Shown piece after piece: positions 6,010-40,661 of a stretch of 64,000 nucleotides of DNA. The position numbers were made by a program, and so were the translations under genes. Numbering within the stretch: the first letter of the stretch is position 1; each line of letters starts with the position of its first letter. The DNA comes from Candidatus Latescibacterota bacterium (GTDB lineage Bacteria > Latescibacterota > UBA2968 > GCA-2709665), in NCBI GenBank assembly GCA_965248435.1, contig OZ252100.1:2560001-2624000 (forward strand), given 5' to 3'. Below the pieces are notes generated by a model. It was not told the DNA's origin, searched no databases, and saw nothing but the letters and a program-made list of their open reading frames with translations.

Positions 6010-6017
6010 GACAGCGG

Positions 6018-6426
6018 ATGCGCGAGATCCTCGCCGGATTGACCCCGCATAAGGAGGTGGAGCCGGTCGATATCGACGACTATGACCCCGCCCCGGATGA
6101 AAAGACCCGCAAGCGCATCGAGCGTGGTCTCTTGTCAGCGGATGCCCGCGCTGACAGCGGCCGAATACGTCAAGGGCTGGGGCTCGATATACACGATCAC
6201 GGACGATTGGCATCCCCTGGTCGGTCCGGAGCCGGGACTCGAAGGCTATTATGCCTGCTTCGGGGGCAGCGGACACGGGTTCAAGCTCGGGCCGCCGATC
6301 GGCGAGGCCTTGAGCGACGTCATCGCGGGAAAAAAGCCGGACATCGACATCCACGCCCTGCGCCCGAACCGCTTCATCGACGGCGAGATCTTCACCTCCG
6401 CGTGGGGCGGAGGCAACAGGGCGTAG
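6018..6426 (+). pseudogene. Truncated, frameshifted C-terminal fragment of an FAD-dependent oxidoreductase (DAO/sarcosine oxidase beta-like)
   Basis: WGSIYTITDDWHPLVG...GGSGHGFKLGPPIGE; upstream VDIDDYDP segment is in another frame; no N-terminal GxGxxG. Confidence 0.8.
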
Positions 6427-22467: not shown

Positions 22468-23073
22468 TCAGCGTAGGCGAAGCACCAGCACCCAGGCAAT
22501 GAAATCGGTCTTATCAGTTTCTCCGAAGCGTGTCCGGCTTACGGAATGGACCTCGAAGCGTGGCTCGCACGCGCCCACAAGCTCGGCGAAAGTGAGCCGA
22601 GGATAACCCCGGGGGTCTGGGCCGCCGTCCGGGTCGCGATTGTCTGCGCTCGCTGTGATGTCCAGCCACCAGCCCCTTGGCGAGAGCGAGGATGCAACGC
22701 GCTCCGCGAACTTGGTGCGCTCCGATTCGTCTTTGGCGTTGGCGAGCACGCTTCGGTCCAGCGCGAGATCGTAAGGGCCCCCCGGATCGTCGCGAAGGAA
22801 GTCCTCGACTGAGAACTCCGCATCCAGGCCGCGGCGGGCCGCTTCAGCACGCGCGGTTTCAACCGCTGTCTCCACGATATCGATCCCTCGAACATTGAAG
22901 CCGGCCTCCGCGAGATAAAGCGCCTGCGTACCCACGCCGCAGCCCACGTCCAGGACGCGCCCACCGTTGGGCAGCAGGTCCCTCACGATTCCCTCGAGCG
23001 GCGCCCACGGCTTTCCCTCCTCCCACGGTGTGTCGCCCTGTCGGTACAACTCGTGCCAGTCGCGCGAACTCAT
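22468..23073 (-). CDS. Class I SAM-dependent methyltransferase (TPMT-like)
   Basis: WHELY..GDTPW, VLDVGCGVG, YDLALDRS. Confidence 0.88.
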   Translation of the reverse strand: MSSRDWHELYRQGDTPWEEGKPWAPLEGIVRDLLPNGGRVLDVGCGVGTQALYLAEAGFNVRGIDIVETAVETARAEAARRGLDAEFSVEDFLRDDPGGPYDLALDRSVLANAKDESERTKFAERVASSLSPRGWWLDITASADNRDPDGGPDPRGYPRLTFAELVGACEPRFEVHSVSRTRFGETDKTDFIAWVLVLRLR

Positions 23074-23459: not shown

Positions 23460-24521
23460 TCATCTGCCAAGTTGCTCGAGCATCCACGGAATAGACTTCC
23501 TGCCATTGAACATGTGTCCCCCCTTGTAGCGATGAAGTCGCAAACGTTTTTCGACACCCAGAAAGCCATATGCCTTTTTCGTCAATGAATAGGCCGGCTC
23601 GTGTGGGTAGCGCGCATCGCTCACTCCGGATTCCACGAACTGAGGGCGGGGCGCAATGAGTGCGGAAAGATCGGGAAGATCACAGACGAGGCCGATACCA
23701 AAGGGATGATGACAAATACAATGGCCGTGCCACGCAGTCTGAAGGAAAGTCGTGAAGAAGCCGCTGAGGATAACCGCCTTGATTCGCCTGTCGAGAGCCG
23801 TGAGAACCTGAGACAGCCAGCACCCGCCAGATAACCCCGCACAACCGATGCGCCCTGCATCGACTTCGGGACGTTGGGCCAGAAGATTGATGCCTGCCAT
23901 CAGCTCAAACACGCGGAAACCGGTCAAGTCAAGTCCCATCTGATTCAACCTCGCCCACGTCAGGAAACACCCTGAGACGGGTAGATGTCCTTTCTGATTC
24001 TTTCCGAGACCGCGTTCACCCATCCCCGCATTGTCCGGTGCGAGAGCAACCAGACCGCGCCTGGCGAATTCATGCGCATAGGCCACACCCTTCGGGCGGG
24101 CTATGCCCACCACATTCTCTTTGGCGCCTTCAACGTGGCCGTGAGGACAGATCACAGCAGGTCCTTGCTCCCTGCCATCGGGGATCAGCAGATATGCGCT
24201 CACCCAATCGCCCGGCAAGACCTCGTAGGCCAGCTTCTCGCGCCGATAGCCTTCGCATTGCACGGTTTCCAGCACAAGCGATGTTGGCGTTGGTACGGTG
24301 CCGAGGCGATCCAGGCATAGCGTCCTGCGCAAGGCGCGACGCAGCTTCCTGCGCCAGCGTTGCCATTGACCCGCATCTGAAGTCTCCGGATAGGCGAGTT
24401 TCCGATCAAACCTGAAGAATCTCTGGTTCAGATATGATGGTGTACTGGGATCTTCCGGACCCGTTGACCGTTCGGGATCGACCAGTCTCGAACCTGTTTG
24501 CGTTACTCTCCGAATAATCAC
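23460..24521 (-). CDS. Dienelactone hydrolase-like alpha/beta hydrolase
   Basis: AVICPHGH, RIGCAGLSGG nucleophile elbow, LIAPRP, GGH. Confidence 0.85.
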   Translation of the reverse strand: MIIRRVTQTGSRLVDPERSTGPEDPSTPSYLNQRFFRFDRKLAYPETSDAGQWQRWRRKLRRALRRTLCLDRLGTVPTPTSLVLETVQCEGYRREKLAYEVLPGDWVSAYLLIPDGREQGPAVICPHGHVEGAKENVVGIARPKGVAYAHEFARRGLVALAPDNAGMGERGLGKNQKGHLPVSGCFLTWARLNQMGLDLTGFRVFELMAGINLLAQRPEVDAGRIGCAGLSGGCWLSQVLTALDRRIKAVILSGFFTTFLQTAWHGHCICHHPFGIGLVCDLPDLSALIAPRPQFVESGVSDARYPHEPAYSLTKKAYGFLGVEKRLRLHRYKGGHMFNGRKSIPWMLEQLGR

Positions 24522-24527
24522 CCCTAT

Positions 24528-24625
24528 AGCCCGGTGAACTGTGTGGGCGGAACCTATTGTACTGCCGTCGCCACACCTCGGTCAACACCTTTGCCTCCGC
24601 AGCGTCGTGAAGAATTCACCGTCAC
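24528..24625 (-). mobile_element. IS3-family transposase C-terminal remnant
   Basis: EFFTTLREAKVLTEVWRRQYNRFRPHSSPGYR integrase-core tail. Confidence 0.75.
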
Positions 24626-24679
24626 TGATAAATAGGCAGAAAGTAGGTTCTTGTTAGCACGCGGCTAGCAATCACGAAA

Positions 24680-24712
24680 CAACGGGTTACAGCAATTGCC
24701 TGTAACCCGTTG
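24680..24712. repeat. 13-bp-arm palindrome adjacent to the att duplication
   Basis: CAACGGGTTACAG-caattgc-CTGTAACCCGTTG. Confidence 0.8.
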
Positions 24713-24717
24713 TCATT

Positions 24718-24760
24718 TTTGGTCGGGGCGGCGGGATTTGAACCCACGACCCCCTGCTCC
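24718..24760 (-). repeat. att direct repeat: 43-bp exact copy of the tRNA-Pro 3' half
   Basis: Identical to 34817-34859. Confidence 0.95.
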
Positions 24761-24771
24761 TAAATAGGAGG

Positions 24772-25431
24772 TCAGTTTGCCAAAAGGCTCCTAAACTCAG
24801 ATGGGCTGGCAGACTGCCTCACCCTGAGCCACTCAAGACTTGGCAGGGACAGATCGATATGACATAGCCTACTTCGCCGCAAGGGGCGAAACCAGAACGC
24901 GATTGTAGGCTGCACTGGTGGCAATAGAACGCCATCCCCTTGGGTCAAACTTCGCACGAGCATGCCCATCGGATAACGAAACCGGCCTACCATCCACCGG
25001 CAAATCGGGTTGGCAGCTTTCAGATGCGCCACTTCGTATCGCACCAGATCCACGACCCACGGCGGCTCAATACCCTCTCCAAGAACGACGTGTTTAACAA
25101 AGGCACAGAAAGCAAAAGCATCCTCTTGGTGTTTCTTCATCCCCTTCGGAACATAGGTAACGGCATATCGCCAGAAAAGCTTTACAAACCCCTCACCCAA
25201 CACGCGATGCGTGAGCGGCAGCAGTTTACAGACTTCGTTCAGCCGTTTCCGCCGCAGGGAATTAGCGAAGAAATTGACCTGCGGCGCGGCCAGTTGAGCA
25301 AGCTGCTGTTCCTCATCAGAACTCAGTTCTAAAGCGCGGCCTACCGCTTGAGGATCGGCAAAGAAACGATCTCGAAAGGAAGCATCCGTATAAAGCTTGG
25401 TCATGACTCGCTGTATCTGCGCTAACCCCAT
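24772..25431 (-). CDS. DUF692-partner protein (DUF2063/SCO6045-like)
   Basis: LYTDASFRDRF..FANSLRRKR..LLPLT..DLVRYE; overlaps the restored DUF692 stop. Confidence 0.65.
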   Translation of the reverse strand: MGLAQIQRVMTKLYTDASFRDRFFADPQAVGRALELSSDEEQQLAQLAAPQVNFFANSLRRKRLNEVCKLLPLTHRVLGEGFVKLFWRYAVTYVPKGMKKHQEDAFAFCAFVKHVVLGEGIEPPWVVDLVRYEVAHLKAANPICRWMVGRFRYPMGMLVRSLTQGDGVLLPPVQPTIAFWFRPLRRSRLCHIDLSLPSLEWLRVRQSASPSEFRSLLAN

Positions 25432-26263
25432 CGTTCGTGCGCCTTCCCTATGCAGCGCGCCATTTCCAATTCCTTCAGCAATTCTTCAAACGGCGGCAGG
25501 TTCTCATCCCGCTCCAGCACGACCCCTTTCACAGGCGTGGTGGCAACGACCGCATCCATCAGTGTCCACGCCTCGGACGGTGCCGCTGCGAATGGCTATC
25601 AACGAGCACACCTTCATGCCAATGCCCTCCTGCGAAATGAAGCTGCACGATGCGCTCCAATGGCAATTGCTCCAGAAAGATAGAAGGGTCATAGCCGTGG
25701 TTGACAGCGTTGGTGTGCAGGTTCGTGACGTCTAACAACAGGCCGCAATCTGTCTGCTGCAGCACTTCATTCAAAAACTGCGATTCGCTCATCTCTCCGC
25801 CAGGCATGTTCACCACGTAGGTGATATTCTCTAAAATCAGTGGTTTCTCAATCCGATTTCGCACTTGTGCGATGTTGCGACAGAGTACCTTAACCGCCTC
25901 GCGCGTAAAAGGAAGCTGAGAGAGATGCCCGATGTCGATCCCGCCTGCCCTGGTAAAGGCGATGTGTTCGCTCCACCAAGGGGGGTTTAGACGCCGAACA
26001 AGCCCCGCCAGCTTGTCCAGGTATTCGTTATCTACTCCCTCGGCGCTTCCCAGGGATAGATTAATGGAGTGTGGAATGAGAGTGAAATGCTCTGCGAGCA
26101 AATCCAGCTCTTGCTCTTTCTCAGGCGGTGCGTCGATGTAGTGATCAGCCGTAATTTCGAGAAAATCAACCTCCGGCCGGTGTAAAAAAAGGTCGCTTCG
26201 GAACGGTTCCCTAAATCCCAGCCCTACACCTAGTGTCGGCAGATGTGAAAGTAGATCTTTCAT
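25422..26263 (-). pseudogene. DUF692 multinuclear non-heme iron oxidase (MNIO), frameshifted near 25585
   Basis: GVGLGFR, DFLEITADHY, WSEHIAF, ILENI, LLLDVTNL, QLHFAGG, VDSHS; C-terminus (AWTLM..VVLERDENLPPFEELLKEL..*) continues in a shifted frame. Confidence 0.88.
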
Positions 26264-26267
26264 GTTC

Positions 26268-27149
26268 TCACCCTCCTCCACAGCCGCCACAGCCGCCTCC
26301 ACACGATCCTTCACTCCCTGTGGACTTGTGAAACATTCTTTGGTAGTACTCGTAGGGAGTTCCAGCAAGCACTCCGACGCCGAAGAGCCCTAGAGTCAGC
26401 AACAGGGTCGGACCCGCTGCAGTTTTGGTGGCCGCAAGAGCCCTCTCTTTCAGCCCTTCGAACGCCAACTGGAGCTTTTGCAAATAAGCCCGTCCTCTAC
26501 TGCTGAGACGGGGCGTCTCGCAGATACTGAACAGAATTCCAAGCGAAAAAAGACCCAAAAGGACGAGGCCTAATTTGGACTGACCCTTCATTAAAGCGAA
26601 TAACAGCTTGTATCCCCCCAGGCCCACGATGACGATCGCGCCTTTAAGCCTTATCTGCTGAGCCGCTTCCTGCACTTCGGCAGGCATCAGCAGTTGCTCC
26701 TCTTCAAGTCTCTGGTCGAAGGACGCGTAGTGATACTTGATTTCGGATGGCAGCTCTGATTGGAAAATCTCCTCCGAAGCAAGACGGTTGTGGAACCAAT
26801 CGAAAACTTCGCGCTCCATTTGAGACAGATGGCGAGTGTGAGGATGGTCTGGGACCTGTTCTATTCGCTCATTCGACTCCTCCGTCACACGTAGGTAGCC
26901 TCGTTGAAGCAGGTTGAAGATAGCGACTCGTGCCACCTCACTCTCTTCGCCACGCAAATAGGCAGTTTCGTAGGGATTCGGGGTCCTAGTGGGAACTTTC
27001 AGCGGAGGCAGCGACGCCGTTGGGTCAGACTGGCGTAACCTCCACCAACAGGCCGCCAGCGTGAAAACGATGACGATCGCGTAAAAGAAGAAAAAGTGAG
27101 GCCCATACATATCGGCAATAGGGTTTTGCATAAGCCAATCCACTATCAT
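26268..27149 (-). CDS. TIGR04222-domain membrane protein with Gly/Cys C-terminal tail
   Basis: NPIADMYGPHFFFFY, PYETAYLRG, three TM segments, ends GSEGSCGGGCGGCGG. Confidence 0.85.
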   Translation of the reverse strand: MIVDWLMQNPIADMYGPHFFFFYAIVIVFTLAACWWRLRQSDPTASLPPLKVPTRTPNPYETAYLRGEESEVARVAIFNLLQRGYLRVTEESNERIEQVPDHPHTRHLSQMEREVFDWFHNRLASEEIFQSELPSEIKYHYASFDQRLEEEQLLMPAEVQEAAQQIRLKGAIVIVGLGGYKLLFALMKGQSKLGLVLLGLFSLGILFSICETPRLSSRGRAYLQKLQLAFEGLKERALAATKTAAGPTLLLTLGLFGVGVLAGTPYEYYQRMFHKSTGSEGSCGGGCGGCGGG

Positions 27150-27262
27150 CACCTCCTAGAGCCGGTCAAAAATGCTGGCCGCTTGTCCAACTGTTGACAT
27201 TAAAGCATTGTAGTGAGCTCTGCAGCGTCAGGCGTGTGATCTCCTGACTTCAGGGTCTTGGA

Positions 27263-27781
27263 TTAACCCAGGGGCCATGGTAGTAGTATGATTCCTGCGG
27301 GCCAATCGAGTGAGAGAATGACCGAGATAAGAAGGATGAAGTTAAACCCCATCAGACCCGCGGCGGCGGCTAGTATCCAATCGGTTTTGACGACATAGCG
27401 GTAAAAAAGGGCAATGAAGATCGCTATGCTCAGGGGATAACCAACGAGCCATATTCCTAAGTAGAGGAGAGAACCATAAATACCCACCTCTCTCATGCGT
27501 ATGTTCCTTGTGTGTCCATCCTCCTCCGTCTTTCCTACATCGGAAACCTTTAATTCCGAATCTCCTCTGTCATCTACATTGGCCTCTTGTTTCACCCTAC
27601 TGAAAGACACTACCTCCAACCCAAGATGAACGCACGCTAGAAGGAGAAACGTAAGGCTTACAAACAAAGGGAAGATCTTTGCCAGATATGAATAGGAAAC
27701 GGCCTCCCCTGCCCCGTATCCAAACCCCAGCGCAACCAGCCCTGCAAAAAGGACCTTCATATTGAATATTTTAGTCTGCAA
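27263..27781 (-). CDS. tctB: Tripartite tricarboxylate transporter small membrane subunit
   Basis: Four TM segments, FP motif, position after tctA. Confidence 0.75.
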   Translation of the reverse strand: MQTKIFNMKVLFAGLVALGFGYGAGEAVSYSYLAKIFPLFVSLTFLLLACVHLGLEVVSFSRVKQEANVDDRGDSELKVSDVGKTEEDGHTRNIRMREVGIYGSLLYLGIWLVGYPLSIAIFIALFYRYVVKTDWILAAAAGLMGFNFILLISVILSLDWPAGIILLPWPLG

Positions 27782-29255
27782 AGTCGTCTCCAGGACTCAG
27801 AGGTTTTGCTCGATAACGAATGCTCATGACCAGGGATACAAGAATAATGAGGAACAGAACTAATACACCGGGACGAGCAAACCAGCTCAAACCGTACCGT
27901 TGTACTGAGATGAAGAGATACGTTTCCAGGTTGCCCGCCAGCACGAAGCCGATGAGAGCAGCGGGCCGAGGCCATGCCAGATGTTTCATCACCCACCCCA
28001 GCGTTCCAATCAGTAAGAGCGCTACCAAATCGCCCCAGCTTCTCGTCGCCTGATATGAGACCAATGTTACGACGAGTACCATAAAAGGCGCTACATAGTG
28101 GAAAGGGATGATCGTAATCTGGGAGATGGGTCGGGACAAGAGAATGCAAAGCCCTGCTCCAACGACATTGGCCAGCGCTAGACTCCAAATTGCTGTGTAG
28201 AGCAGGTCCGCTTTTTCGGTCACCATGGAAGGCCCTGGTTGAATTCCAAGAATAAGAAGACCCCCCAAAAAAACGGCCATAGAGCCAGAGCCGGGGATAC
28301 CGAAAAGGAGTGTCGGAATGAGCCCCCCTCCTTCCTTCGCATTGTTGGCGCTCTCAGGCGCCAAAACGCCTCGAATATCCCCTCTTCCGAAATTCTTCGG
28401 GGGCCTGGCTGTTGTTATGATATGCCCGTAGGCGAGCCAATCTACCACCGAACCACCGAGACCTGGCAGGAACCCCACAACGACACCGATCAGGCTGCAC
28501 CGCAAGACGATGAATTTGTAGCGAATGACATCTTTTACGCCGTCCAACCAGCCTTTTTCAATCTTGCCGGCTTGAGCAATGGGCCGCCCTTGCCTGATGA
28601 GGTCTATCAGCTCGGGAACTGCGAACAGCCCGAGCCCTACAACGACAAGAGAGATGCCGTCCAGCAGATACGCTGTGCCAAAGGTGTAGCGGTATTCGGG
28701 GACCGCCGGGGCCGATCCCATCGATCCGATCATGAGTCCGATGCCAGCAGCCAGCAGGCCTTTGAGGATGTGTTTGCCGGAGAGAATTCCGACCATCGAT
28801 ATCCCGAGGAGCGCCAGCATGAAAAGCTCCGGAGAGCCGAAAGCGAGTATGAGTGGCCGGGCGATGGGTACTATGACGGAGAGCGCCAACGCCCCAATAA
28901 GTCCACCGATAAGTGACGCCGAAAAGGCGGCGGAAAGGGCCCGCGCCGCCTGACCTTTTTGGGCCAAAGGATACCCGTCCATGACGGTGGCCTGAGATCC
29001 TGCTGAGCCCGGAATGCCCATCAACACCGAGGGGAACGTGTCCGAAGTGGGAATGACCGCGATCATCCCGATTAGAAGGGCAAACGCGCTATGGGGAGCC
29101 ATGCCGTATATCACAGGTAGGAGCATGGTCATACCTACGATGCCACCAAGCCCTGGAATGATCCCGACCAAGAGTCCTACCAGAACGCCTGTGATCAACA
29201 TCAATAAGTGCGTCATGCTAAAAACAGTGTGTAAGGACTCCAGGAATGCATCCAC
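27771..29255 (-). CDS. tctA: Tripartite tricarboxylate transporter large permease
   Basis: GIIPGLG, DGYPLA, APESANNAKEGG, GIPGS. Confidence 0.93.
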   Translation of the reverse strand: MDAFLESLHTVFSMTHLLMLITGVLVGLLVGIIPGLGGIVGMTMLLPVIYGMAPHSAFALLIGMIAVIPTSDTFPSVLMGIPGSAGSQATVMDGYPLAQKGQAARALSAAFSASLIGGLIGALALSVIVPIARPLILAFGSPELFMLALLGISMVGILSGKHILKGLLAAGIGLMIGSMGSAPAVPEYRYTFGTAYLLDGISLVVVGLGLFAVPELIDLIRQGRPIAQAGKIEKGWLDGVKDVIRYKFIVLRCSLIGVVVGFLPGLGGSVVDWLAYGHIITTARPPKNFGRGDIRGVLAPESANNAKEGGGLIPTLLFGIPGSGSMAVFLGGLLILGIQPGPSMVTEKADLLYTAIWSLALANVVGAGLCILLSRPISQITIIPFHYVAPFMVLVVTLVSYQATRSWGDLVALLLIGTLGWVMKHLAWPRPAALIGFVLAGNLETYLFISVQRYGLSWFARPGVLVLFLIILVSLVMSIRYRAKPLSPGDDFAD

Positions 29256-29267
29256 GACTCTTCCTCC

Positions 29268-30359
29268 CTATTCCGCAGTAATCCCATACTTGCTCGTGAT
29301 CCAATCGCGCATCCAGGATTTGCTCTCATCTGGAACGTCTATGACTTGCTTGAACGATTCATGTGCCAACTTCCCGACGAGTTGCGGATAGCCTCCCAGG
29401 CTCTTCTCAACCTCTCCTTGAAACTGGGAATCCGCGATGATTTTGGCGGCCGCTGCCCGATAATCCTGTACGATTTCATCTGGCGTATTTTCAGGCAGCC
29501 ACATGGCCTTTTGCAGGCCGAAGCCCGCAATTAAAAACGCCTTCCAGGCTTGCCACTCCGGCCCGGAAGGCTTTTCCCCGTGCACCATCTCGTACACTTC
29601 GGGAAAACACGGCAGGTCCGGCTCGATTGGATCTCTGACAATAGTCCCGTCCCGATCCAACACACCCCATGTCATTAAAGGTACGGCGAGTTTCTGTTTT
29701 ACTAGAGGACGGACGTTTTTGATGTAAGCGGTAGTAGTCTGATAGTCGATGTTGGCTTCCCCCTGCTCGAACGCGACTCGTCCGGCGCCTCTGCCCTTGT
29801 AGCCGAAGATTGCGCTGACTTCAAGTTTGAGCATATGGAAAGCCAATAATGGAACAATATCGAGGGATGTTGGCCCTTGAGAGGCATAAGAGAGTTTCAG
29901 GTTGAATCCCTTGAGGTCCCGGGCGGACGTAACCCCCATGCCGGGTTTGGTATAGACCACCCCACCGGAAGGGGAAGCGAATACGATTTGATACTTTGCG
30001 AAGTCGTACTGGACTTTGCGGTTTTCCAGTAGATAGGGGAACGTTGTAGACCCTGAAGAGCCAAAGACCGTCAAGCCATCAGCACTGACCCCCGTGTGAA
30101 AGTAGTTCCCTCCATTGATACTCCCGCCGCCCGGCATATTCTTTACAACAACCACAGGATGGCCTGGAAGATACTTCTGAAAATAGGGTGCGTAGATTCT
30201 TGCCCATATATCGGAGCCCCCACCCACTTTAAAAGGGATGATCCACTTAATGGTGCTGCGAGAACCTTTCGTCTGGTAAGCGACATATACGTTCAGCAAG
30301 GTGAGAAGAATAACGCTTACAAGGAAAATTATCCTTTTCTTCTGAAGCCGTGTGGTCAT
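29268..30359 (-). CDS. tctC: Tripartite tricarboxylate transporter substrate-binding protein
   Basis: IIPFKVGGGSD..AR, NMPGGG, ADGLT, GYKG..AFEQGE. Confidence 0.88.
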   Translation of the reverse strand: MTTRLQKKRIIFLVSVILLTLLNVYVAYQTKGSRSTIKWIIPFKVGGGSDIWARIYAPYFQKYLPGHPVVVVKNMPGGGSINGGNYFHTGVSADGLTVFGSSGSTTFPYLLENRKVQYDFAKYQIVFASPSGGVVYTKPGMGVTSARDLKGFNLKLSYASQGPTSLDIVPLLAFHMLKLEVSAIFGYKGRGAGRVAFEQGEANIDYQTTTAYIKNVRPLVKQKLAVPLMTWGVLDRDGTIVRDPIEPDLPCFPEVYEMVHGEKPSGPEWQAWKAFLIAGFGLQKAMWLPENTPDEIVQDYRAAAAKIIADSQFQGEVEKSLGGYPQLVGKLAHESFKQVIDVPDESKSWMRDWITSKYGITAE

Positions 30360-30563: not shown

Positions 30564-32603
30564 CTACGGAGGGACCATCCGATCAGCCTCGCGCACCTGG
30601 ACAATCACACAAAAGCGCGTCCCAGGGACCTTTGCGAAGCCGGCCAGCCAGCGGCCGGCGTGCGCGGAATTCTCTTGTCCAACCGGATCGCGGTAGTCTT
30701 CAAACGCGCCGCCCGAAAGCATATGGGCCTGATCCTTCGGGAAGGGAACGGGACAAGCACGAGGCTCGAATGTCGGGTGGAGCACGATCAGATACTCCGC
30801 GGGTTGTTTGGGCTCGCCTCTTGCGGGATTGGGATCCCAGAGACCCACCACGGCGACCTTATACCTCGAATCCTTGATCTGCTCCAAGCCCATGGTTCGG
30901 CCGGTGGTGATTGACGCATGGATCACCCCAATGATTTCCCCCTCTTCGGACTGCACAACGCGGTCAATACCAAACTTGTAGATCTTCTGCGCCTTGGAAA
31001 AATAGAGCCTCGAGACGTACACGGCCTGGACCCCGGGTTCACTCGCCCGGGCAAGCGCCCCCTGTATGTAATCGCGAAAGAGGAAGTTCTTCCCGAGCAA
31101 AGGCTCCTCCCGATCTTCTTGGTCCATCGACTGTTCAAGCATCTTCCCCTTGGCATCATAGATCGCGGAGGTCTCGAAGGGGCGGTAACCTTCTAGGCCG
31201 AGGCGGCTCTTCGCCAGATTCTTTAGGAAGGCATGAAGGCCGTCCACGTCGTCCGACCGCAGCATCACTCTCAACTTGTCGCTCCCCGCCGCCTCGTTCA
31301 CGACCGCCTTCAGCTTTTCGAGCCGGTTGTGCAGGATCGAGGCTACCAATCCGGCGACATATTCGCAGCTCTCCAGCGTTGCCCTTTTTTGGGCTGAGAC
31401 CGTGATCTCAGCGTTACGCTTGTCCAACCAGGTCTTTCCGCCAACACCAGAAAGCGACAGGGCCACAACCGTGAAGACGGCCGCAGCGGGATTGCGCCGG
31501 CTCCACCGCCACACGTGTTTCCAGACAGGCCAGCGTGGAACCGCTCTTGGTTTCTTTAGATCCAGCCATCGTTGCAGGTCGCGGGCTACAGCCTCCGCGG
31601 ATCCATAGCGTTCCTCTGGGTTCTTCTCCAAGCATTTGAGACAGGTCCTTTCCAGATCGGGGTCGCAGCGACCGTGCAGTGCCTTCGGGAACTCCGGGAT
31701 GCGGTTCCTGACCAGGGTCTGGGGGTCCGCCCACGACTCGTCGGGACTTTCGACTCGATAGGGCGCCTTTCCGGTAAGGATGGCAAAGAGAACGGCGCCC
31801 AGCCCGTGCACGTCGCTCGTCGTGGTCAGGTCTAAATTCGGCTCTGTCTGTTCGGGAGACATGAAACCAATCGTGCCTTCGACGTTTCCCGTAGCCGGGA
31901 TTTTCTCATCCTTCTCAAAAGGCTTGGCCAGGCCAAAGTCTGTAACATATGGCCGCTGTTCGTCGTCCAGCAGGATGTTATCTGGTTTCAGGTCACCATG
32001 CTGGAGTCGGCGCGTGTGCGCGTGATGCACGGCCAGTGCGAGCTTCTTCACCAAGTAAGCCGCGGCGCGATGATCATGAGTAAATTCCGATAAGCGATCG
32101 TTCAGGCTGCAACCTTCGATGAAATCCATGGTGAAGTACGGCCTGCCGTCTGCGTGGATCCCAACTTCGTGTACCGGGACGATGTAGCTGTGCTTCAGAT
32201 TTGCCTGATGCTGCGCTTCTGTGCGAAAGCGCTTAACATCTTCCCGGGTCAGAGATGCGCCGGGCCGTGTGATCTTCAAGGCCACCCATCGCTTGAGGTT
32301 GGCATCAAAAGCTTTGTACACGACCCCCATTCCGCCGTGACCCACGTATTGGATCTTCGTGTATCGCGGTTCCTCGCCAAGCACACCGAAGTCTTCAAGA
32401 ACGAGTGGAATATCGTCGACGATCCACGGAGGATCTTTCAAGAACCCCTCAGACTCCGCCTTCGCTGCGTGCGGCAAGAGAGCTTCCACCTCGCCACGCA
32501 CGTGTGGATCCATTTCGTCGAGGTAGGTTCGGCGCTCGGAGGGTTCGAGCGCCTGTGCCTCCGCGAGGGCATCGGAGACTTCCTCCCAACGTTCAGCGCT
32601 CAT
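30564..32603 (-). CDS. Membrane Ser/Thr protein kinase with Cache-like C-terminal sensor
   Basis: GHGGMGVVY, VALK, HGDLKPDN, DFGLA, GTIGFMSPEQ; TM after RRNP; NFLFRDYIQGA, VYVSRLY. Confidence 0.9.
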   Translation of the reverse strand: MSAERWEEVSDALAEAQALEPSERRTYLDEMDPHVRGEVEALLPHAAKAESEGFLKDPPWIVDDIPLVLEDFGVLGEEPRYTKIQYVGHGGMGVVYKAFDANLKRWVALKITRPGASLTREDVKRFRTEAQHQANLKHSYIVPVHEVGIHADGRPYFTMDFIEGCSLNDRLSEFTHDHRAAAYLVKKLALAVHHAHTRRLQHGDLKPDNILLDDEQRPYVTDFGLAKPFEKDEKIPATGNVEGTIGFMSPEQTEPNLDLTTTSDVHGLGAVLFAILTGKAPYRVESPDESWADPQTLVRNRIPEFPKALHGRCDPDLERTCLKCLEKNPEERYGSAEAVARDLQRWLDLKKPRAVPRWPVWKHVWRWSRRNPAAAVFTVVALSLSGVGGKTWLDKRNAEITVSAQKRATLESCEYVAGLVASILHNRLEKLKAVVNEAAGSDKLRVMLRSDDVDGLHAFLKNLAKSRLGLEGYRPFETSAIYDAKGKMLEQSMDQEDREEPLLGKNFLFRDYIQGALARASEPGVQAVYVSRLYFSKAQKIYKFGIDRVVQSEEGEIIGVIHASITTGRTMGLEQIKDSRYKVAVVGLWDPNPARGEPKQPAEYLIVLHPTFEPRACPVPFPKDQAHMLSGGAFEDYRDPVGQENSAHAGRWLAGFAKVPGTRFCVIVQVREADRMVPP

Positions 32604-33226
32604 GATTCTTCTCCTCGCAAGCGTTGATGAAGCCAGGCCCGAGCGGCGCGCCAGTCTTTTTCCACTGTGGACACGGAAACCCCCAGGTAACCGGCGATCT
32701 CTCTCTCCTTGAGACCGCCAAAAAAGCGGAGCGAGACGACCTTGCTCTGTCGCTGGCTTTTCTGTGTGAGTTCGTCAAGGGCTGCGTGCAAGTCTAGATA
32801 CTTCACTTTCTGCGTTGCTTCAAGCGCTTCGACCGCCCGGTCCCATATATCCTGTTCGGATCCTTGTCGTTTCGCTAGCCGTCGAGCATGCTCAATAAGG
32901 ATGCGGCGCATCGCCAACGCCATGGCGCCGAAAAAATAAGCGCGATTTGGGGCTTTAAAGTTGCCCTTGCTGAAAATTCTGATCCACGCCTCATGCACTA
33001 TCGACGACGCCTGGCACATGGCATTCGTTCGCTCCCTGAAGAGCTTTCCGCGGGCCATCTCCTTAAGCTCCTCATAGACCTGTTCGATGAGTTGATGCTT
33101 TGCAACCGGATCACCTGCCGCCGCATTCTGAATAAGTCGCGTCAGCTCTCCGGCGGACTGGAGGTCCATGGAATTCACCTCCTGCGACGAGTCTCTTTCC
33201 GCATCATCAGGGGGTCTTTTTTCCAT
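32600..33226 (-). CDS. ECF-type sigma factor (TIGR02999-like, kinase-associated)
   Basis: VYEELKEMA, IVHEAW, YFFGAMALAMRRILIEHAR, LRFFGGL, TVEKDWRAARAWL. Confidence 0.92.
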   Translation of the reverse strand: MEKRPPDDAERDSSQEVNSMDLQSAGELTRLIQNAAAGDPVAKHQLIEQVYEELKEMARGKLFRERTNAMCQASSIVHEAWIRIFSKGNFKAPNRAYFFGAMALAMRRILIEHARRLAKRQGSEQDIWDRAVEALEATQKVKYLDLHAALDELTQKSQRQSKVVSLRFFGGLKEREIAGYLGVSVSTVEKDWRAARAWLHQRLRGEES

Positions 33227-34809: not shown

Positions 34810-34818
34810 TGTTTTATT

Positions 34819-34895
34819 TGGTCGGGGCGGCGGGATTTGAACCCACGACCCCCTGCTCCCAAAGCAGGTGCTCTACCGGGCTGAGCCACGCCCCG
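34819..34895 (-). tRNA. tRNA-Pro(TGG)
   Basis: CGGGGCG acceptor stem, CCTGC-tt-TGG-ga-GCAGG anticodon arm, GGTTCAAATCC, CCA end. Confidence 0.97.
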
Positions 34896-35368: not shown

Positions 35369-35642
35369 CTCCTCCAGAACACGAAAACTGATTCACGAGG
35401 CGCACTAGGATCCCTGCCCCGGCGAAAAAGTAAGCGACTTGGGGAAACCTGTCAACGGAATTCGGTGGTTTCTTTCGCCCTTGCGATCACCTTTGCGGCG
35501 TGTTAGCTTAACAGTTCTTGCAACGAAGGGCGAAAGAAACCGGACGGTAGACAACGGACGGCAGACCGCAGAATGAATTGACCGATTCCTGTGGTACTAC
35601 GCGGTCCGCGGTCTGTGGTCTGCAGTCATGGAGAGCGTCTTC

Positions 35643-36764
35643 ATGTCTATGCTAATCATAGATGGCCATCTAGACCTGGCCTTCAACGGCCTCTTTAATC
35701 GCCGTGACCAGAGGCAGCCCGCAATGGTCCTGCGCAATCGGGAGGACATCTTTCTAAGCGGCCCTTCCGCTGACCCGGAGGCCGTACTCATTAAAGAAAA
35801 TGCCTGGGCGGACAAGCAGCACGGCATGGCCACGGTCTCCCTTCCAGACATGCGCAGGGGTCACGTCGGCATAGGGCTGATTACGATCATGTCGCGTATC
35901 CAGCTGCCCGGTCCGAACAGTCACAACTCCGTGCGAACGCAGGCGGTCGCTCACGCGCAGGGCATCTCCCACCTGGCCTACTACGAAGCCCTGGAGCGCG
36001 AAGGCGAAGTTCGGTTCATCAAGTCCGTAAAAGACCTGGATGTATCTGTCGCGGAGTGGGAGAATCCAACTCCGGAGACTCCCATCGGTCTGATCCTTTC
36101 CATGGAGGGGGCCGACCCGATTCTCGGGCCGGACAACGTTCAGGACTGGTGGGAGGCCGGACTCCGATCCGTCTCCCTCACCCACTTCGGGGCCAACACC
36201 TACGGTCACGGCACGGGAACCGAAGGCGGACTCTACACGCCTGCCTTTCCCCTGATGGACGCCCTGCGAGACGCGGGCGTCATGCTGGACGTGACCCACT
36301 CCGCCGACCTCGCCTTCTGGCAGCTGCTTGACTACTGGGACGGACCCATCCACGCCAGCCACTGCAACTGCCGCGCCCTCGTTCCGGTCCAGCGGATGTT
36401 GACGGACGAGATGATCAAAGCGCTTTGCGAGCGCGACGCCGTGATCGGCGTCGTCTTCGCCGATACGTTCGTGAATCCGAACGCGCACATGTTCGGGCCC
36501 ACAACCGCCATGACCCGGCCGATGAGCGCCAACGTCGAACACATCGACCACATCTGCCAGCTCACCGGAAACACCGACCACGTCGCTATCGGAAGCGACC
36601 TGGACGGCGGCTTCGGTCGCGAGAAGTCTCCCTGTGACCTGGACACCATCGCAGACCTGCAGGGCTTCCTGGACGCCCTGAGACAGCGCGGATACAGCGA
36701 GGACGACGTCGCCAAGATCGCCCACGGCAACACGCTGCGGCTTTTCAGGAAAGCGTGGAGTTGA
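35643..36764 (+). CDS. M19 membrane-dipeptidase family (amidohydrolase) paralog 1
   Basis: IDGHLDLA, SMEGAD, DVTH, HASHCN, IGSDLDGG. Confidence 0.92.
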   Translation: MSMLIIDGHLDLAFNGLFNRRDQRQPAMVLRNREDIFLSGPSADPEAVLIKENAWADKQHGMATVSLPDMRRGHVGIGLITIMSRIQLPGPNSHNSVRTQAVAHAQGISHLAYYEALEREGEVRFIKSVKDLDVSVAEWENPTPETPIGLILSMEGADPILGPDNVQDWWEAGLRSVSLTHFGANTYGHGTGTEGGLYTPAFPLMDALRDAGVMLDVTHSADLAFWQLLDYWDGPIHASHCNCRALVPVQRMLTDEMIKALCERDAVIGVVFADTFVNPNAHMFGPTTAMTRPMSANVEHIDHICQLTGNTDHVAIGSDLDGGFGREKSPCDLDTIADLQGFLDALRQRGYSEDDVAKIAHGNTLRLFRKAWS

Positions 36765-36782
36765 TCAAGCCAAATCTCTTCC

Positions 36783-36838
36783 TTGTCCCGATCTCTCGAT
36801 ACACGGCGCGCGGAGATAGGAACCTCATCAGCGCCGCA
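36783..36838 (+). repeat. 56-bp direct repeat, second copy at 38168-38223
   Basis: Two mismatches between copies; each follows a dipeptidase stop. Confidence 0.9.
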
Positions 36839-37037
36839 CTCGAGGTTCCAGTTCTTTTGCGTAAGGTGATTCTGTGATTTCTTTGTCGGTTTCCCTTCAT
36901 CATTCGGTACGACGTCGACTTTTTTCGTGCCTTTCGTGATCCTTCGTGCAATTTCGTGATCCAGCTTTTACGAACGACGGTTTTGCGGTACCCGGTACCC
37001 GTGTTTTGATTTCCCTGTACCCGATCATTGCGCCTTT

Positions 37038-38162
37038 ATGCCCACTCTAATCATAGACGGCCATCTAGACCTGGCCCACAACGCCCTCTTCCACCGCCGG
37101 GACCAGACGCAGCCGGTCGAAGTCCTTCGCGAGCGGGACGACGGGTTCCTCCTGGGGCCCACAGCCGACCCGGAGGCGGTCCTGGTCCGTTACGACCCCT
37201 GGGCTGACACGCCAAAAGGGATTGCAACCGTCTCCTTTCCAGAGATGCGAAAGGGACACGTCGGCATCGCGCTCGGGACGATCATGGCCCGTGTGCAGGA
37301 ACCGGGTCCGAAGCGTGGCGAAACGGACCGTACTCAGGCCGCGGCTCACGCTCGCGGCATGGGCCACCTGGCCTACTACCGCGCCCTGGAGCGAGAGGGC
37401 CAGATCCGGTTCATCAAATCCACAAAAGATCTGAATGCCTCCGTCGCGGAGTGGGACAATCCGACTCCGGAGACGCCCATCGGCCTGATTCTCACCATGG
37501 AGAGCGCCGACCCCATCCTCGGGCCCGACAACGTGGAGGACTGGTGGGAGGCCGGACTCCGCTCCGTCTCCCTTACCCATTTCGGAGCCAACACCTACGG
37601 CCACGGAACGGGCACCGTCGGGGGGCTGTATCCTCCCGCCTTCCCGTTGATGGATGCCCTGCGTGCGGCAGGTGTCATCCTTGACGTCACCCACGCCTCC
37701 GACCTGGCCCTCCGTCAGATCCTGGACTACTGGGACGGTCCGATCCACGCCAGCCACTGCAACTGCCGCGCACTCGTCGACATTCAGCGCCTCCTGACTG
37801 ACGACATCATCAAGGAGCTCTGCAAGCGCGGAGGCGTGATCGGTGTCGTCTTCGTCGAGAACTTCATCAACCCTGCGACCGCGGCCCTGGCTAGCGTACC
37901 GCCCGCTTCCACTCGGCCGATGAGCGCGGTCGTGGATCACATCGATCACATCTGCCAGCTCGCGGGAAACGCCGACCACGTCGCCATCGGAAGCGACCTG
38001 GACGGCGGGTTCGGGCGGGAGTATTCGCCCACCGACATGGACAGCATCGCAGATCTGCAGAAGTTCCTGGGCATATTGCAACAGCGGGGATACAGCGAGG
38101 AGGACGTCACTAAGATCGCCCACGGCAACATGCTTCGTCTCTTTGGAAGCGCCTGGCAGTGA
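37038..38162 (+). CDS. M19 dipeptidase family paralog 2
   Basis: Same motifs; closest to paralog 1. Confidence 0.92.
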   Translation: MPTLIIDGHLDLAHNALFHRRDQTQPVEVLRERDDGFLLGPTADPEAVLVRYDPWADTPKGIATVSFPEMRKGHVGIALGTIMARVQEPGPKRGETDRTQAAAHARGMGHLAYYRALEREGQIRFIKSTKDLNASVAEWDNPTPETPIGLILTMESADPILGPDNVEDWWEAGLRSVSLTHFGANTYGHGTGTVGGLYPPAFPLMDALRAAGVILDVTHASDLALRQILDYWDGPIHASHCNCRALVDIQRLLTDDIIKELCKRGGVIGVVFVENFINPATAALASVPPASTRPMSAVVDHIDHICQLAGNADHVAIGSDLDGGFGREYSPTDMDSIADLQKFLGILQQRGYSEEDVTKIAHGNMLRLFGSAWQ

Positions 38163-38315
38163 TTGCGTTGTCCCGATCTCTCGATACACGGCGCGCGGGG
38201 ATAGGATCCTCATCAGCGCCGCAAACCACGAAAGAAGAGCGACGACCTTTCCGGTACCCGGTACCCGTGTTTTGATTTCCCGGTACCCCGAATAACCTCT
38301 GTTACTCGAGCGCCC

Positions 38316-39410
38316 ATGCCTGATAAACCCCTCCTCATCGCCGACAGCCATCTCGACCTCGGCTTCACTGCGCTTCAGGTCAACCGAGACCTCACGGTGC
38401 CGGCAGCGACTGTTCGCACACACGACCCACCTTCGGTCATGCGGACCTTTGGGAGCTGTACCGTCACCTTTCCCGAGCTCAGAAAGGGAAACGTCGGGCT
38501 CGTCTTCGGAACCGCGACAGCCAAAGTCGGACCGAAGGACAACTGGACTGGACTCGGCATGTACGACCAGACCCAGTGCTACGGCATGGTCAGGGGCCAC
38601 GTCGCTTACTACCAGGCCATGGAGCGGGAAGGCGTCATCCGGATGATCCGTTCCGCCCAGGATCTGGATCAATTGCTCGCGAGCTGGGAAGACCCCGCCC
38701 CCGACACCCCGATCGGCCTCGTGCTGGCCCTGGAAGGCTGTGACGGCATTCGGGATCCCGAGCAGGTGCCGGAGTGGTACGACCTGGGTGTGCGCGTGTC
38801 CGGCCTCAGCCACTACGGCGTGAGCCGATACGCCCACGGCACCGGTACGGAGGGGGGGCTCAAGCCCATAGCCAAACCCCTCCTGGACGCCTTCCGCGAG
38901 GCCGGCATCATCGTCGATCTCACTCACCTGAGCGACCAGTCTCATTGGGAGGTGATGGACTATTACGACGGTCCCGTCCTCGCTTCCCACAGCAACTGCC
39001 GCGCGCTCGTGCACAACCAGCGCCAGTTCAGCGACGACATGATCAAGTCCATCATCGAGCGGGGCGGGGTAATCGGCGCCGCCTTCGACGTCTGGATGCT
39101 GGACCCCGAGTGGGGTCACGAAACGCCAGCCCACGAACAGATCACGAATGCGACCCTGGAAACGGTCGCGGATCACATCGACCACGTCTGCGAGCTCGCG
39201 GGCAACGCGCACCACGCCGCGCTCGGGACCGACCTGGACGGCGGCTGGGGTACCGAACAGGCCCCGCGTGACCTGAACACGATCGCGGACCTCCAGAAAT
39301 TTGCGGAGATCTTCACGCACAGAGGCTACTCGGAAGAAGACGTCAGCAATGTCCTCTCAGGGAACTGGATCCGGCTCTTGAAGGAAGTGTGGAGCGAGAA
39401 GGAAGGCTAG
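38316..39410 (+). CDS. M19 dipeptidase family paralog 3
   Basis: DSHLDLG, ALEGCD, DLTH, ASHSN, GTDLDGG. Confidence 0.92.
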   Translation: MPDKPLLIADSHLDLGFTALQVNRDLTVPAATVRTHDPPSVMRTFGSCTVTFPELRKGNVGLVFGTATAKVGPKDNWTGLGMYDQTQCYGMVRGHVAYYQAMEREGVIRMIRSAQDLDQLLASWEDPAPDTPIGLVLALEGCDGIRDPEQVPEWYDLGVRVSGLSHYGVSRYAHGTGTEGGLKPIAKPLLDAFREAGIIVDLTHLSDQSHWEVMDYYDGPVLASHSNCRALVHNQRQFSDDMIKSIIERGGVIGAAFDVWMLDPEWGHETPAHEQITNATLETVADHIDHVCELAGNAHHAALGTDLDGGWGTEQAPRDLNTIADLQKFAEIFTHRGYSEEDVSNVLSGNWIRLLKEVWSEKEG

Positions 39411-39531
39411 GGGCCCTCACCCTGCCTCGCTGTCGCTCGGCATCCCTCTCCCATAAACGGGAAAGGGAAAAACAAAGCGCATCGCCATCTCCCCTCTCCC
39501 ACGTGTGGGAGAGGGGTTGGGGGTGAGGGCC
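39411..39531. repeat. REP-like compound palindrome
   Basis: GGCCCTCACCC...GGGTGAGGGCC enclosing CCCTCTCCC/GGGAGAGGG hairpins. Confidence 0.75.
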
Positions 39532-39566
39532 TCCAGCGAATAACGATTTTAATCCTGGTCCTATTC

Positions 39567-40661
39567 ATGACTGACAAACCCATATTCATCGCCGACGGTC
39601 ATCTCGACCTCGCCTTCACCGCGCTGCACGCCAATCGTGACCTCACCCAGCCGGCTGCGACCGTTCGTACCCACGACTCGCCGAAAGTCATGCAGACCTA
39701 CGGCAGCAGCACCACCACATTCCACGAACTCCACAAGGGTCACGTCGGACTCGTCATCGCGACGGCGACCGCCAGGCTGGCCCCGAAAGACAACTGGACC
39801 CGCATCGGGATGTATACCCAGGCACAGTGCTACGGCGTCGCGTGCAGTCACGCCGCATACTACCACGCCATGGAACGGGAGGGCGTCATCCGAATCGTCC
39901 GCTCCGTGCAGGACCTGGATGAAGTCATCGCCAGCTGGAAGGACCCCGCACCCGATACCCCCATCGGCCTCGTCCTCGCACTGGAAGGGTGCGACCCCAT
40001 TCTTGACCCCGATCAGGTCCCGGAGTGGTACGACATGGGCCTCCGCGTCGCCAGCCTCTCTCACTACGGCGTCACCAGCTATGCCCACGGAAGCGGTACA
40101 GAAGGGGGCCTCCTCCCACCCGCCAAGCCCCTCCTGGATGCCTTCAGTGAGTTTGGCATCATCGTTGACCTCTCCCACCTGACCGACCAGTCCTACTGGG
40201 AGCTCCTGGACATCTACGACGGTCCCGTCCTCGCCTCCCACTGCAACTGCCGCGCCCTCGTGCCTGACCAGCGCCAGCTCAGCGACGACATGCTAAAGGC
40301 CGTCATCGAGCGAGGTGGCGTAATCGGTTCCGCGTTCGACTCCTGGATGCTGGACACCGAGTGGAAGCACACCGCGGCCCCTTATCATCAGATTTCAAAT
40401 GCCACACTCGAGACCGTCGCCGATCACATCGATCACGTCTGTGAGGTCGCTGGCAACGCGCGCCACGCCGGACTCGGCACCGACGTGGATGCCGGCTTCG
40501 GCACCGAACAGACCCCGCGTGACTTCAACACAAGCCCCGACCTGCAAAAATTCAGAGAAATCTTCGAACGCAGGGGATACTCTGAAGAAGATGTCCGAAA
40601 CATCCTCTCCGGAAACTGGATTCGGCTCCTGAGAAAGGTCTGGAGCAATCAGGCAGGCTGA
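39567..40661 (+). CDS. M19 dipeptidase family paralog 4
   Basis: Same motifs; closest to paralog 3. Confidence 0.92.
   Translation: MTDKPIFIADGHLDLAFTALHANRDLTQPAATVRTHDSPKVMQTYGSSTTTFHELHKGHVGLVIATATARLAPKDNWTRIGMYTQAQCYGVACSHAAYYHAMEREGVIRIVRSVQDLDEVIASWKDPAPDTPIGLVLALEGCDPILDPDQVPEWYDMGLRVASLSHYGVTSYAHGSGTEGGLLPPAKPLLDAFSEFGIIVDLSHLTDQSYWELLDIYDGPVLASHCNCRALVPDQRQLSDDMLKAVIERGGVIGSAFDSWMLDTEWKHTAAPYHQISNATLETVADHIDHVCEVAGNARHAGLGTDVDAGFGTEQTPRDFNTSPDLQKFREIFERRGYSEEDVRNILSGNWIRLLRKVWSNQAG

Follow-up and report, generated by a model that had tools for sequence, protein, structure and literature searches.

A frameshifted, island-borne TIGR04222-MNIO-partner module with a candidate Cys/Gly substrate tail in a Latescibacterota genome

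Which protein would an MNIO enzyme act on when no small precursor gene lies beside it? The question is raised by a gene cluster on the minus strand (24772-27152) of a 64,000-nucleotide stretch of contig OZ252100.1 from Candidatus Latescibacterota bacterium, referred to here as the window. The cluster comprises the genes of a TIGR04222 membrane protein, an MNIO (DUF692) and a partner protein of 219 residues, packed in that order. A preliminary description of this DNA had seen a tight three-gene operon here and had taken the Cys residues in the tail of the membrane protein as the substrate of the MNIO; all three genes were indeed found at this position and on this strand. The source genome (5.67 Mb in two contigs) has a single MNIO and a single TIGR04222 gene. 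We consider it probable, at roughly 0.6, that the locus is a TIGR04222/MNIO/PME-type-2-partner module, which would be a self-contained protein-modification system, functional in relatives but island-borne and broken here. The features of the module are as follows.

26268..27152, minus strand: gene of the TIGR04222-domain membrane protein, 294 residues from GTG 27152; NCBIfam TIGR04222, 112.1 bits
26271..26306, minus strand: core of the tail, SCGGGCGGCGGG, with a Gly after each of its three Cys, proposed modification site; motif in 30/32 homologues
26271..26279 (region 26261-26279), minus strand: GGAGGAGGG, three Gly codons at the very end of the tail, serving also as the Shine-Dalgarno word for the MNIO start (ATG 26263)
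25586..26263, minus strand: in-frame part of the MNIO, residues 1-226 (MKDLLSHLP...VDSHSQ); Pfam PF05114, 248.9 bits
25584..25585, minus strand: frameshift site in the MNIO gene, from the window DNA compared with the sister-strain protein P0139
25422..25583, minus strand: C-terminal part of the MNIO in a shifted frame (APSEAWTLMDAVV...LERDENLPPF...); PF05114 positions 227-260, with the invariant W, G and LERDEN
24772..25431, minus strand: gene of the MNIO partner protein, 219 residues, 'PME-type 2' partner

The three-gene core and its Cys/Gly tail

The three genes are closely joined: the MNIO start codon begins 4 nucleotides past the TIGR04222 stop, and the partner gene begins, with its ATG, 10 nucleotides before the MNIO gene ends. 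The TIGR04222 match, for which the NCBIfam cut-off is 43 bits, spans model positions 1-229, and the protein also scores 31.9 bits against Pfam DUF2207_C, slightly below the cut-off of 33. Its hydropathy profile shows four hydrophobic segments, at about residues 19-37, 169-187, 194-212 and 245-263, with a soluble domain of 130 residues, possibly a winged-helix domain, between the first two and a C-terminal tail after the fourth. The protein can be aligned over its full length with 22 homologues (alignment A3) and keeps every invariant position. A Shine-Dalgarno word at 27152-27157, upstream of the gene, suggests that the true start is ATG 27149 or GTG 27143. When PDB sequences were searched with a TIGR04222 profile, nothing but Gly/Ser-linker matches came back.

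The tail that follows the last transmembrane helix is a low-complexity segment of Ser, Gly and Cys (...STGSEGSCGGGCGGCGGG). The Cys/Gly end given in the preliminary description is real, but the actual terminus, ...GSEGSCGGGCGGCGGG, holds one Gly more. This tail is the shortest in the family, with 27 residues after the conserved LAGTPY and three Cys; those of relatives have 38-103 residues and 4-12 Cys, as counted by a script heuristic. Of 32 TIGR04222 proteins, 30 have the ending CG{2,4}CG{2,4}CG{1,4}[DE]?; the other two terminate in CGGGCGGG and CGGGGCGGG. Identity to the window's protein is just 37-59% across those homologues, and a Ser/Gly/Cys linker of variable length precedes the motif. 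The tail-end Gly codons read GGA-GGA-GG(G/T) (GGA GGA GGG in the window) and are followed by the stop codon and, after 4-5 nucleotides, by the MNIO ATG; a GGAG, GAGG or AGGA word is present at the same spot in 18 of 25 related loci as well as in the window.

Related loci were fetched from contigs representing one genome per species by means of an eight-row partner alignment and two peptide patterns only, so that the 32 loci obtained are a sample. In 24 of them, TIGR04222 (one copy, or a tandem pair in seven loci), a whole MNIO and the partner lie side by side. The triad is also present in L033, from a Planctomycetota metagenome-assembled genome (MAG), where the MNIO (5173-6007) is read in three frames, which could be a long-read error. 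L027 (genome G041) has the MNIO and the partner, and the sole TIGR04222 gene of that genome, ending ...CGGGCGGCGGS, is located 94 kb away on the same contig. Six loci are fragments or weak matches: L034-L038 give partial or weak matches, and L024 (Acetobacteraceae MAG, 5596-6186) is a remnant without MNIO in which the partner, from residue 14 onwards, is fused behind 24 N-terminal residues of TIGR04222. The loci come from cyanobacteria, including Nostocales, and from one MAG each of Latescibacterota, Pyrinomonadaceae and Planctomycetota, the closest being the Latescibacterota locus L007, with identities of 64% for the partner, 77% for the MNIO and 58% for TIGR04222. The core of three genes is thus conserved in loci of Cyanobacteriota, Latescibacterota, Acidobacteriota and Planctomycetota. 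The overlap between MNIO and partner is 10 nucleotides in 24/24 loci, and the gap between TIGR04222 and MNIO is 2-8 nucleotides in 19/24. The recurrence of this gene order with a whole MNIO in 24 of 32 loci, and of the tail motif in 30 of 32 proteins, goes far beyond what chance would produce.

The three families also occur together at the level of genomes. Among 121 genomes of the cyanobacterial order to which G041 belongs, the partner was found in 10, TIGR04222 in 24 and PF05114 in 21, and all 10 genomes with the partner also contained the two other families, with the triad visibly adjacent in eight. These genomes are kin, and the counts are given without statistics.

A longer type of TIGR04222, with open frames of 463-552 residues and scores of 121-175 bits, was observed in 10 of the 14 genomes of this order that have TIGR04222 and no partner (G288, G231, G279, G263, G201, G271, G172, G242, G187 and G287), nine of the ten being without MNIO. 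The observation agrees with the published view, in which the link to an MNIO is confined to some of the TIGR04222 subfamilies.

With regard to a separate precursor, open reading frames (ORFs) of at least 25 residues within 3 kb of the module were clustered for 26 loci, and only the three core genes, plus their shadow frames, were common to all of them. Among the 170 flanking clusters there is one that links L025 with L033, but none that links any of the three non-cyanobacterial loci (L007, L025, L033) to those of cyanobacteria. The absence of a distinct small precursor, as initially described, therefore holds at this ORF size and distance: none is conserved across phyla. These data bear on another explanation, in which the TIGR04222 protein is an accessory (a membrane anchor, scaffold, exporter or sensor) and the true substrate is encoded elsewhere or by a small unannotated ORF. 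Such a role would agree with the remark in PMC12452194 that many TIGR04222 genes have no nearby MNIO and that the family is heterogeneous, with the distance of 94 kb in G041, and with the lower bound of 25 residues on the ORFs searched. We regard it as unlikely, given that no flanking ORF of that size is shared across phyla, that the near-invariant Cys-Gly motif at the extreme C-terminus resembles a core peptide, that loci with two TIGR04222 paralogues retain the motif in both, and that no DUF2282 precursor was found in the window's genome.

The conservation of the gene core, the near-invariant motif, the 10/10 co-occurrence and the TglI/NGO1945-like partner described below support the proposal that the Cys/Gly tail would be the substrate of the MNIO in intact relatives. 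This is the part of the original substrate claim that stands; it does not extend to the source genome, in which the MNIO appears to be a pseudogene.

The partner protein and the proposed chemistry

The partner is composed of an N-terminal subdomain resembling NHLP and Os1348 (residues 1-63), a helical domain up to about residue 139 and a small alpha/beta C-terminal domain (residues 146-195). An AlphaFold2 model built on 19 homologues reached a predicted local distance difference test score (pLDDT) of 83.4 and a predicted template modelling score (pTM) of 0.72. Foldseek returned two matches in the PDB at E <= 0.001, both of them chain A of the TglHI holoenzyme (8hi7_A, 3.2e-6; 8hci_A, 7.1e-6), and NGO1945 (3dee) came next, with an E-value of 0.018 and a probability of 1.00. 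No match up to E 10, DUF2063 included, was found in the local Pfam library. In PMC12452194, 'PME-type 2' partners are described as encoded after the MNIO, devoid of a DUF2063 signature and structurally related to 3dee and 8hi7. Since the modelled fold resembles those of TglI and NGO1945, DUF2063 is missing and the gene follows that of the MNIO, so that all three features are found, the window partner is, as judged from its model, a 'PME-type 2' MNIO partner.

The partner family is large, as a profile search of 1.84 billion representatives retrieved 1,791 partner-like proteins at E <= 0.001, of which 291 reached E <= 1e-30. There was no match in 72,556 plasmid records. All 18 of 18 partner homologues carry the precomputed Pfam label PF26136, whose name, SCO6045_C, is a lead only.

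In the predicted structure, residues 1-63 of the partner share the fold of the leader of NHLP-type peptides that are made on the ribosome and modified after translation (RiPPs). This fold link would be so far unreported: the main text of PMC12452194 makes no mention of NHLP, nitrile hydratase or Os1348 for the partner N-terminus. In the window the NHLP-like domain forms the N-terminal part of a helper protein, whereas in Os1348 (PDB 6lk7; PMC7726476) it is the presumed substrate, an 85-residue precursor encoded with GNAT, peptidase and SagB-type genes and without MNIO. We also considered the partner itself as the substrate, and rejected this despite its NHLP-like N-terminus because it has no conserved Cys and folds as a TglI-like two-domain protein.

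The MNIO is recognized by PF05114 (MbnB_TglH_ChrH; gathering score, 25 bits) through its N-terminal part, and its C-terminal part alone scores 22.8 bits. The fragment in the window scores 198.1 bits against NCBIfam BufB and 175.1 bits against HvfB, both below the respective equivalog cut-offs of 310 and 360 bits. Whole MNIOs of the subfamily reach 234-252 bits for BufB, 206-223 for HvfB, 113-126 for ApyH, 55-74 for ChrH and 43-50 for MbnB. On the basis of these scores, the MNIOs of the subfamily are a sister group of the thiooxazole-forming enzymes and, by the NCBI cut-offs, not members of BufB or HvfB.

According to 10.1101/2025.11.18.689057, MNIOs of the BufB, HvfB and FonB types install copper-binding 5-thiooxazoles and prefer a Cys-Gly dyad. 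An absorbance near 305 nm has been linked to 5-thiooxazole in a preprint. Because each Cys of the motif precedes a Gly and the MNIO is nearest to BufB and HvfB, the product would, by analogy, most likely be copper ligands of the 5-thiooxazole type. The tail could also be the substrate of a different chemistry, either a TglH-type reaction directed at the C-terminus or a modification that serves sorting, cross-linking or redox functions. This is improbable in our view, as the MNIO is far nearer to BufB and HvfB (206-252 bits) than to ApyH, ChrH and MbnB, and the Cys-Gly dyads match the preference reported for 5-thiooxazole-forming MNIOs.

The positive-inside rule was applied to 23 homologues. 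The N-terminus holds on average 0.2 Lys and Arg, the 33-residue loop before the last helix 6.0 and the tail (mean length, 66 residues) 2.6, a distribution which would place the tail outside the cell. PMC12452194 likewise places the TIGR04222 tail outside the membrane.

A mechanism can be proposed for a thiooxazole-type modification of the tail. The MNIO would be cytoplasmic, and the TglI-like partner would bind and activate it; for HvfB, a 2026 preprint reports that the active mixed-valent diiron state is reached only with the partner. The enzyme would then oxidize those Cys that form Cys-Gly dyads in the C-terminal TIGR04222 tail. Since neither the MNIO nor the partner has an export signal, the tail would need to be modified before the last transmembrane helix is inserted. 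That helix would subsequently bring the tail to the membrane's outer face and so take the role that the signal peptide has in bufferins. The outcome would be a metal-binding tail tethered to the membrane. In its most far-reaching form, which we put forward only tentatively and consider less probable than its opposite, a polytopic membrane protein is itself the precursor: thiooxazole-type ligands would be made in the cytoplasm and flipped out by the last helix, with neither leader nor proteolysis. The leader function would then reside in the NHLP-homologous residues 1-63 of the partner, linking leaders and MNIO partners by descent.

The frameshifted MNIO gene and its island

The wording of the preliminary description implied a broken MNIO frame, and the break was located by tblastn between 25586 and 25574. 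With the whole homologue P0021 as query, frame -1 (26254-25586) matched residues 1-223, and frame -3 (25574-25428) matched residues 228-276. Residues 1-226 of the MNIO are read from 26263-25586, and the last 45 or so residues lie in a separate ORF (25422-25559), so that no uninterrupted frame covers the TIM-barrel domain in the window; in 25 related loci the MNIO is one ORF, 276-286 residues long. One C is absent next to 25585, where the window reads CAG-CGG-CA and the sister strain, by its own reading, CAG-CCG-GCA. Past the break the window continues as RHRPRRGH up to a premature stop (25559-25561), which is overlapped by the ATG (25559) of the C-terminal ORF. Protein P0139 of the near-identical sister strain reads through the break as QPAPSEAW (...DSHSQPAPSEAWTLMDAVV...; ...VDSHSQPAPSEAWTLMDAVV...). 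The part beyond the break contains a Trp, a Gly and the LERDEN motif, all of them invariant (alignment A4), and the ERDEN/LERDEN motif is thereby cut off. Contigs assembled separately from four sequencing runs match the window over 25300-26400 without any indel, at a depth of 15-44, which makes an assembler error unlikely. Programmed frameshifting was rejected because there is no slippery sequence at this site and the frame continues unbroken across it in the sister strain.

The sister strain, whose partner (P0001) is 97% identical to that of the window, has a different lesion. Residues 1-73 of P0139 correspond to residues 258-330 of the window ORF 29268-30359; the protein continues at about residue 157 of TIGR04222, shifts frame ahead of a slightly longer tail and runs into a whole MNIO. 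As called, this strain would have lost about 2.7 kb (window positions 26685-29369, approximately), comprising TctA, the TctB-like ORF and half of TIGR04222, and would have kept the MNIO. That two strains hold two different lesions suggests that the module is decaying in this lineage.

From the reading frames, the MNIO gene of the window would be a pseudogene truncated ahead of the invariant C-terminal motif by a deletion of one nucleotide, and the module is probably no longer functional; modification of the tail is thus not expected in the source genome. It is very unlikely that the module still works here, whether because the frameshift is an artefact or because the MNIO pieces of 234 and 45 residues are both made and reassemble. 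A TGATG overlap would permit re-initiation, the TIGR04222 and partner genes are intact, and the four runs come from a single sample. Against this, the separate contigs of the four runs match the window and the break does not fall in a homopolymer, the two pieces together lack the nine residues PAPSEAWTL, the invariant Trp among them, and the sister strain has decayed independently, through its deletion of about 2.7 kb into TIGR04222 and its frame change before the tail.

The module lies at the distal end of an island that is bounded as follows.

24718..24760, minus strand: distal direct repeat, a 43-nucleotide exact copy of the tRNA-Pro(TGG) 3' end and a boundary resembling an attachment site (att); blastn against the genome, 100%
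34819..34895, minus strand: tRNA-Pro(TGG); ARAGORN; Rfam, 67.3 bits
24761..34816, no strand: island body of about 10.1 kb between the 43-nucleotide repeats
24679..24713, minus strand: hairpin with a 14-bp stem just beyond the distal repeat; pattern scan

The proximal repeat (34817-34859) consists of the 3' 41 nucleotides of the tRNA-Pro and two further nucleotides, and has the same orientation as the distal copy, which is also 98% identical over 48 nucleotides to the tRNA-Pro of a congener. In that congener (G001, the only further genome of the genus), 1.2 kb separate the tRNA-Pro from a homologue of the methyltransferase gene 22468-23073, against 12.1 kb in the window, so that the site is empty in the congener. 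The G+C content is 0.515-0.574 inside the island, against 0.586 and 0.622 in the flanks. According to Pfam, the island also encodes a member of the isocitrate/isopropylmalate-dehydrogenase family, an extracytoplasmic function (ECF) sigma factor, a Ser/Thr kinase, an unassigned 363-residue ORF, TctA and a TctB-like ORF. A search of 40 relatives within the order did not find the partner; two of these genomes contain PF05114 matches, which are weak (47-48 bits). Within the phylum, the partner occurs in 2 of 168 genomes, including that of the window; the other is G050, with a match at the same contig coordinate as L007.

The preliminary description had called this island mobile, a reading that is supported in large part. 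The 43-nucleotide tRNA-Pro repeat and the empty site in the congener speak for its origin as an island, but an integrase was not found: none of the 16 PF00589 matches in the genome lies inside the window (other recombinase families were not searched). The segment is an island remnant that lacks an integrase and is probably immobile; the window's copy of the module was probably acquired with it, by insertion at the tRNA-Pro. Logan contigs of 10,116 nucleotides begin and end inside the repeats, which is the usual behaviour of a k-mer assembler and is uninformative with regard to excision. The hairpin beyond the distal repeat was probably the terminator of the ancestral tRNA-Pro and, as its position suggests, now closes the operon too.

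Several other features of the island and its surroundings were observed. The ECF sigma factor (PF07638) and the Ser/Thr kinase, of 679 residues, are encoded at 30564-33226 on the minus strand, upstream of the transporter genes, and are not conserved beside the module elsewhere. A third copy of the tRNA-Pro 3' end (97% over 39 nucleotides) is located at C1:784738-784776 of the genome, where no tRNA-Pro is called, and may be an att remnant. Four tandem ORFs of 364-378 residues occupy 35628-40661 on the plus strand (35628-36764, 37038-38162, 38316-39410 and 39567-40661). The first and the fourth match Pfam Peptidase_M19 and all four resemble the dipeptidase gene of the congener, which makes them a paralogue array adjoining the tRNA-Pro. 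The ORF 24406-24588 had been read by eye as a transposase remnant, and this was dropped as it has no Pfam or NCBIfam support.

Weight of the evidence and relation to known systems

Several points weigh against reading the locus as a module in which the MNIO modifies the TIGR04222 tail. As the MNIO scores are below the equivalog cut-offs of BufB and HvfB, the chemistry may differ from theirs. The top structural match of the partner is TglI, whose MNIO performs a different reaction: TglH removes the beta-carbon of a C-terminal Cys. The enzyme would be cytoplasmic and the tail outside, and modification before insertion is an extra assumption. Given that the terminal Gly codons double as the ribosome-binding site of the MNIO, the conservation of the motif may in part reflect a nucleotide-level constraint of translational coupling. 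In the sample of 121 genomes, 12 of the 14 genomes with TIGR04222 and without the partner also lack a PF05114 match, and PMC12452194 reports that a third of the genomes with TIGR04222 have no MNIO at all and that more than a quarter of TIGR04222 proteins have no C-proximal Cys; with so many TIGR04222 genomes devoid of MNIO, the class as a whole does not need one. The four runs that show the frameshift represent one sample, possibly the source of the assembly itself, and are not independent DNA. Finally, a literature search, which had subscription journals outside its coverage, found no experiments on any TIGR04222 protein and, in keeping with what was first noted, no demonstrated modification.

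The substrate idea has been published. PMC12452194 (Microb Genom 2025) proposes, as a bioinformatic hypothesis, that the Cys-rich C-terminal segments of TIGR04222 proteins are the substrates of MNIOs with 'PME-type 2' partners. It states that, among the Cys proteins that lack a signal peptide and are encoded ahead of MNIO genes, 40% are TIGR04222 proteins, and it leaves the nature of their modification for investigation. The window locus resembles the clusters described there in having the same three families in the same order, an MNIO near those of bufferins and oxazolin, an NGO1945/TglI-like partner without DUF2063 and a tail predicted to be outside. It differs from them in its tail, the shortest with three Cys, its frameshifted MNIO and its tRNA-Pro island. 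The main text of that paper does not refer to cyanobacteria or pseudogenes, and its supplementary tables include Nostocales genomes with neighbouring DUF692 and TIGR04222 accessions.

The bufferins, oxazolin and fontiphorin ('captophorins'; BufABC, HvfABC, FonABC) are similar in that they have the nearest MNIOs, a likely Cys-Gly target, a required partner and export after cytoplasmic modification. In contrast, their precursors are small peptides with Sec signals, whereas the candidate here is a four-helix membrane protein, and their partner is a DUF2063 protein (PME-type 1) instead of PME-type 2. The window also lacks the DoxX and DUF2282 genes. As to a small Sec precursor of the captophorin type, no DUF2282 was found in the genome and no conserved small ORF in the related loci, the Buf_6/12Cys and EGKCG models not having been searched. 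The module differs from TglHI-TglA (3-thiaglutamate; PDB 8hi7/8hci) in that the sequence identity is 13% and the family models used do not place the MNIO near TglH. Methanobactin biosynthesis (MbnABC) is comparable in that an MNIO and its partner turn Cys into copper ligands.

The window locus is therefore a new, damaged member of a kind that has been described, and it adds little to the substrate idea, which was already published in 2025. What it adds is a sharply defined subfamily, with a core of three genes, a near-invariant C-terminal CGGGCGGCGG motif and 10/10 co-occurrence; evidence that the module has moved between phyla and then decayed; and the fold link, as modelled, between MNIO partner proteins and NHLP leader domains. 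The window's own copy, being broken, is not suited to expression. If the tail is modified in intact relatives, this would be RiPP-type chemistry on a complete integral membrane protein, and would provide a tethered ligand for copper or another metal at the cell surface.

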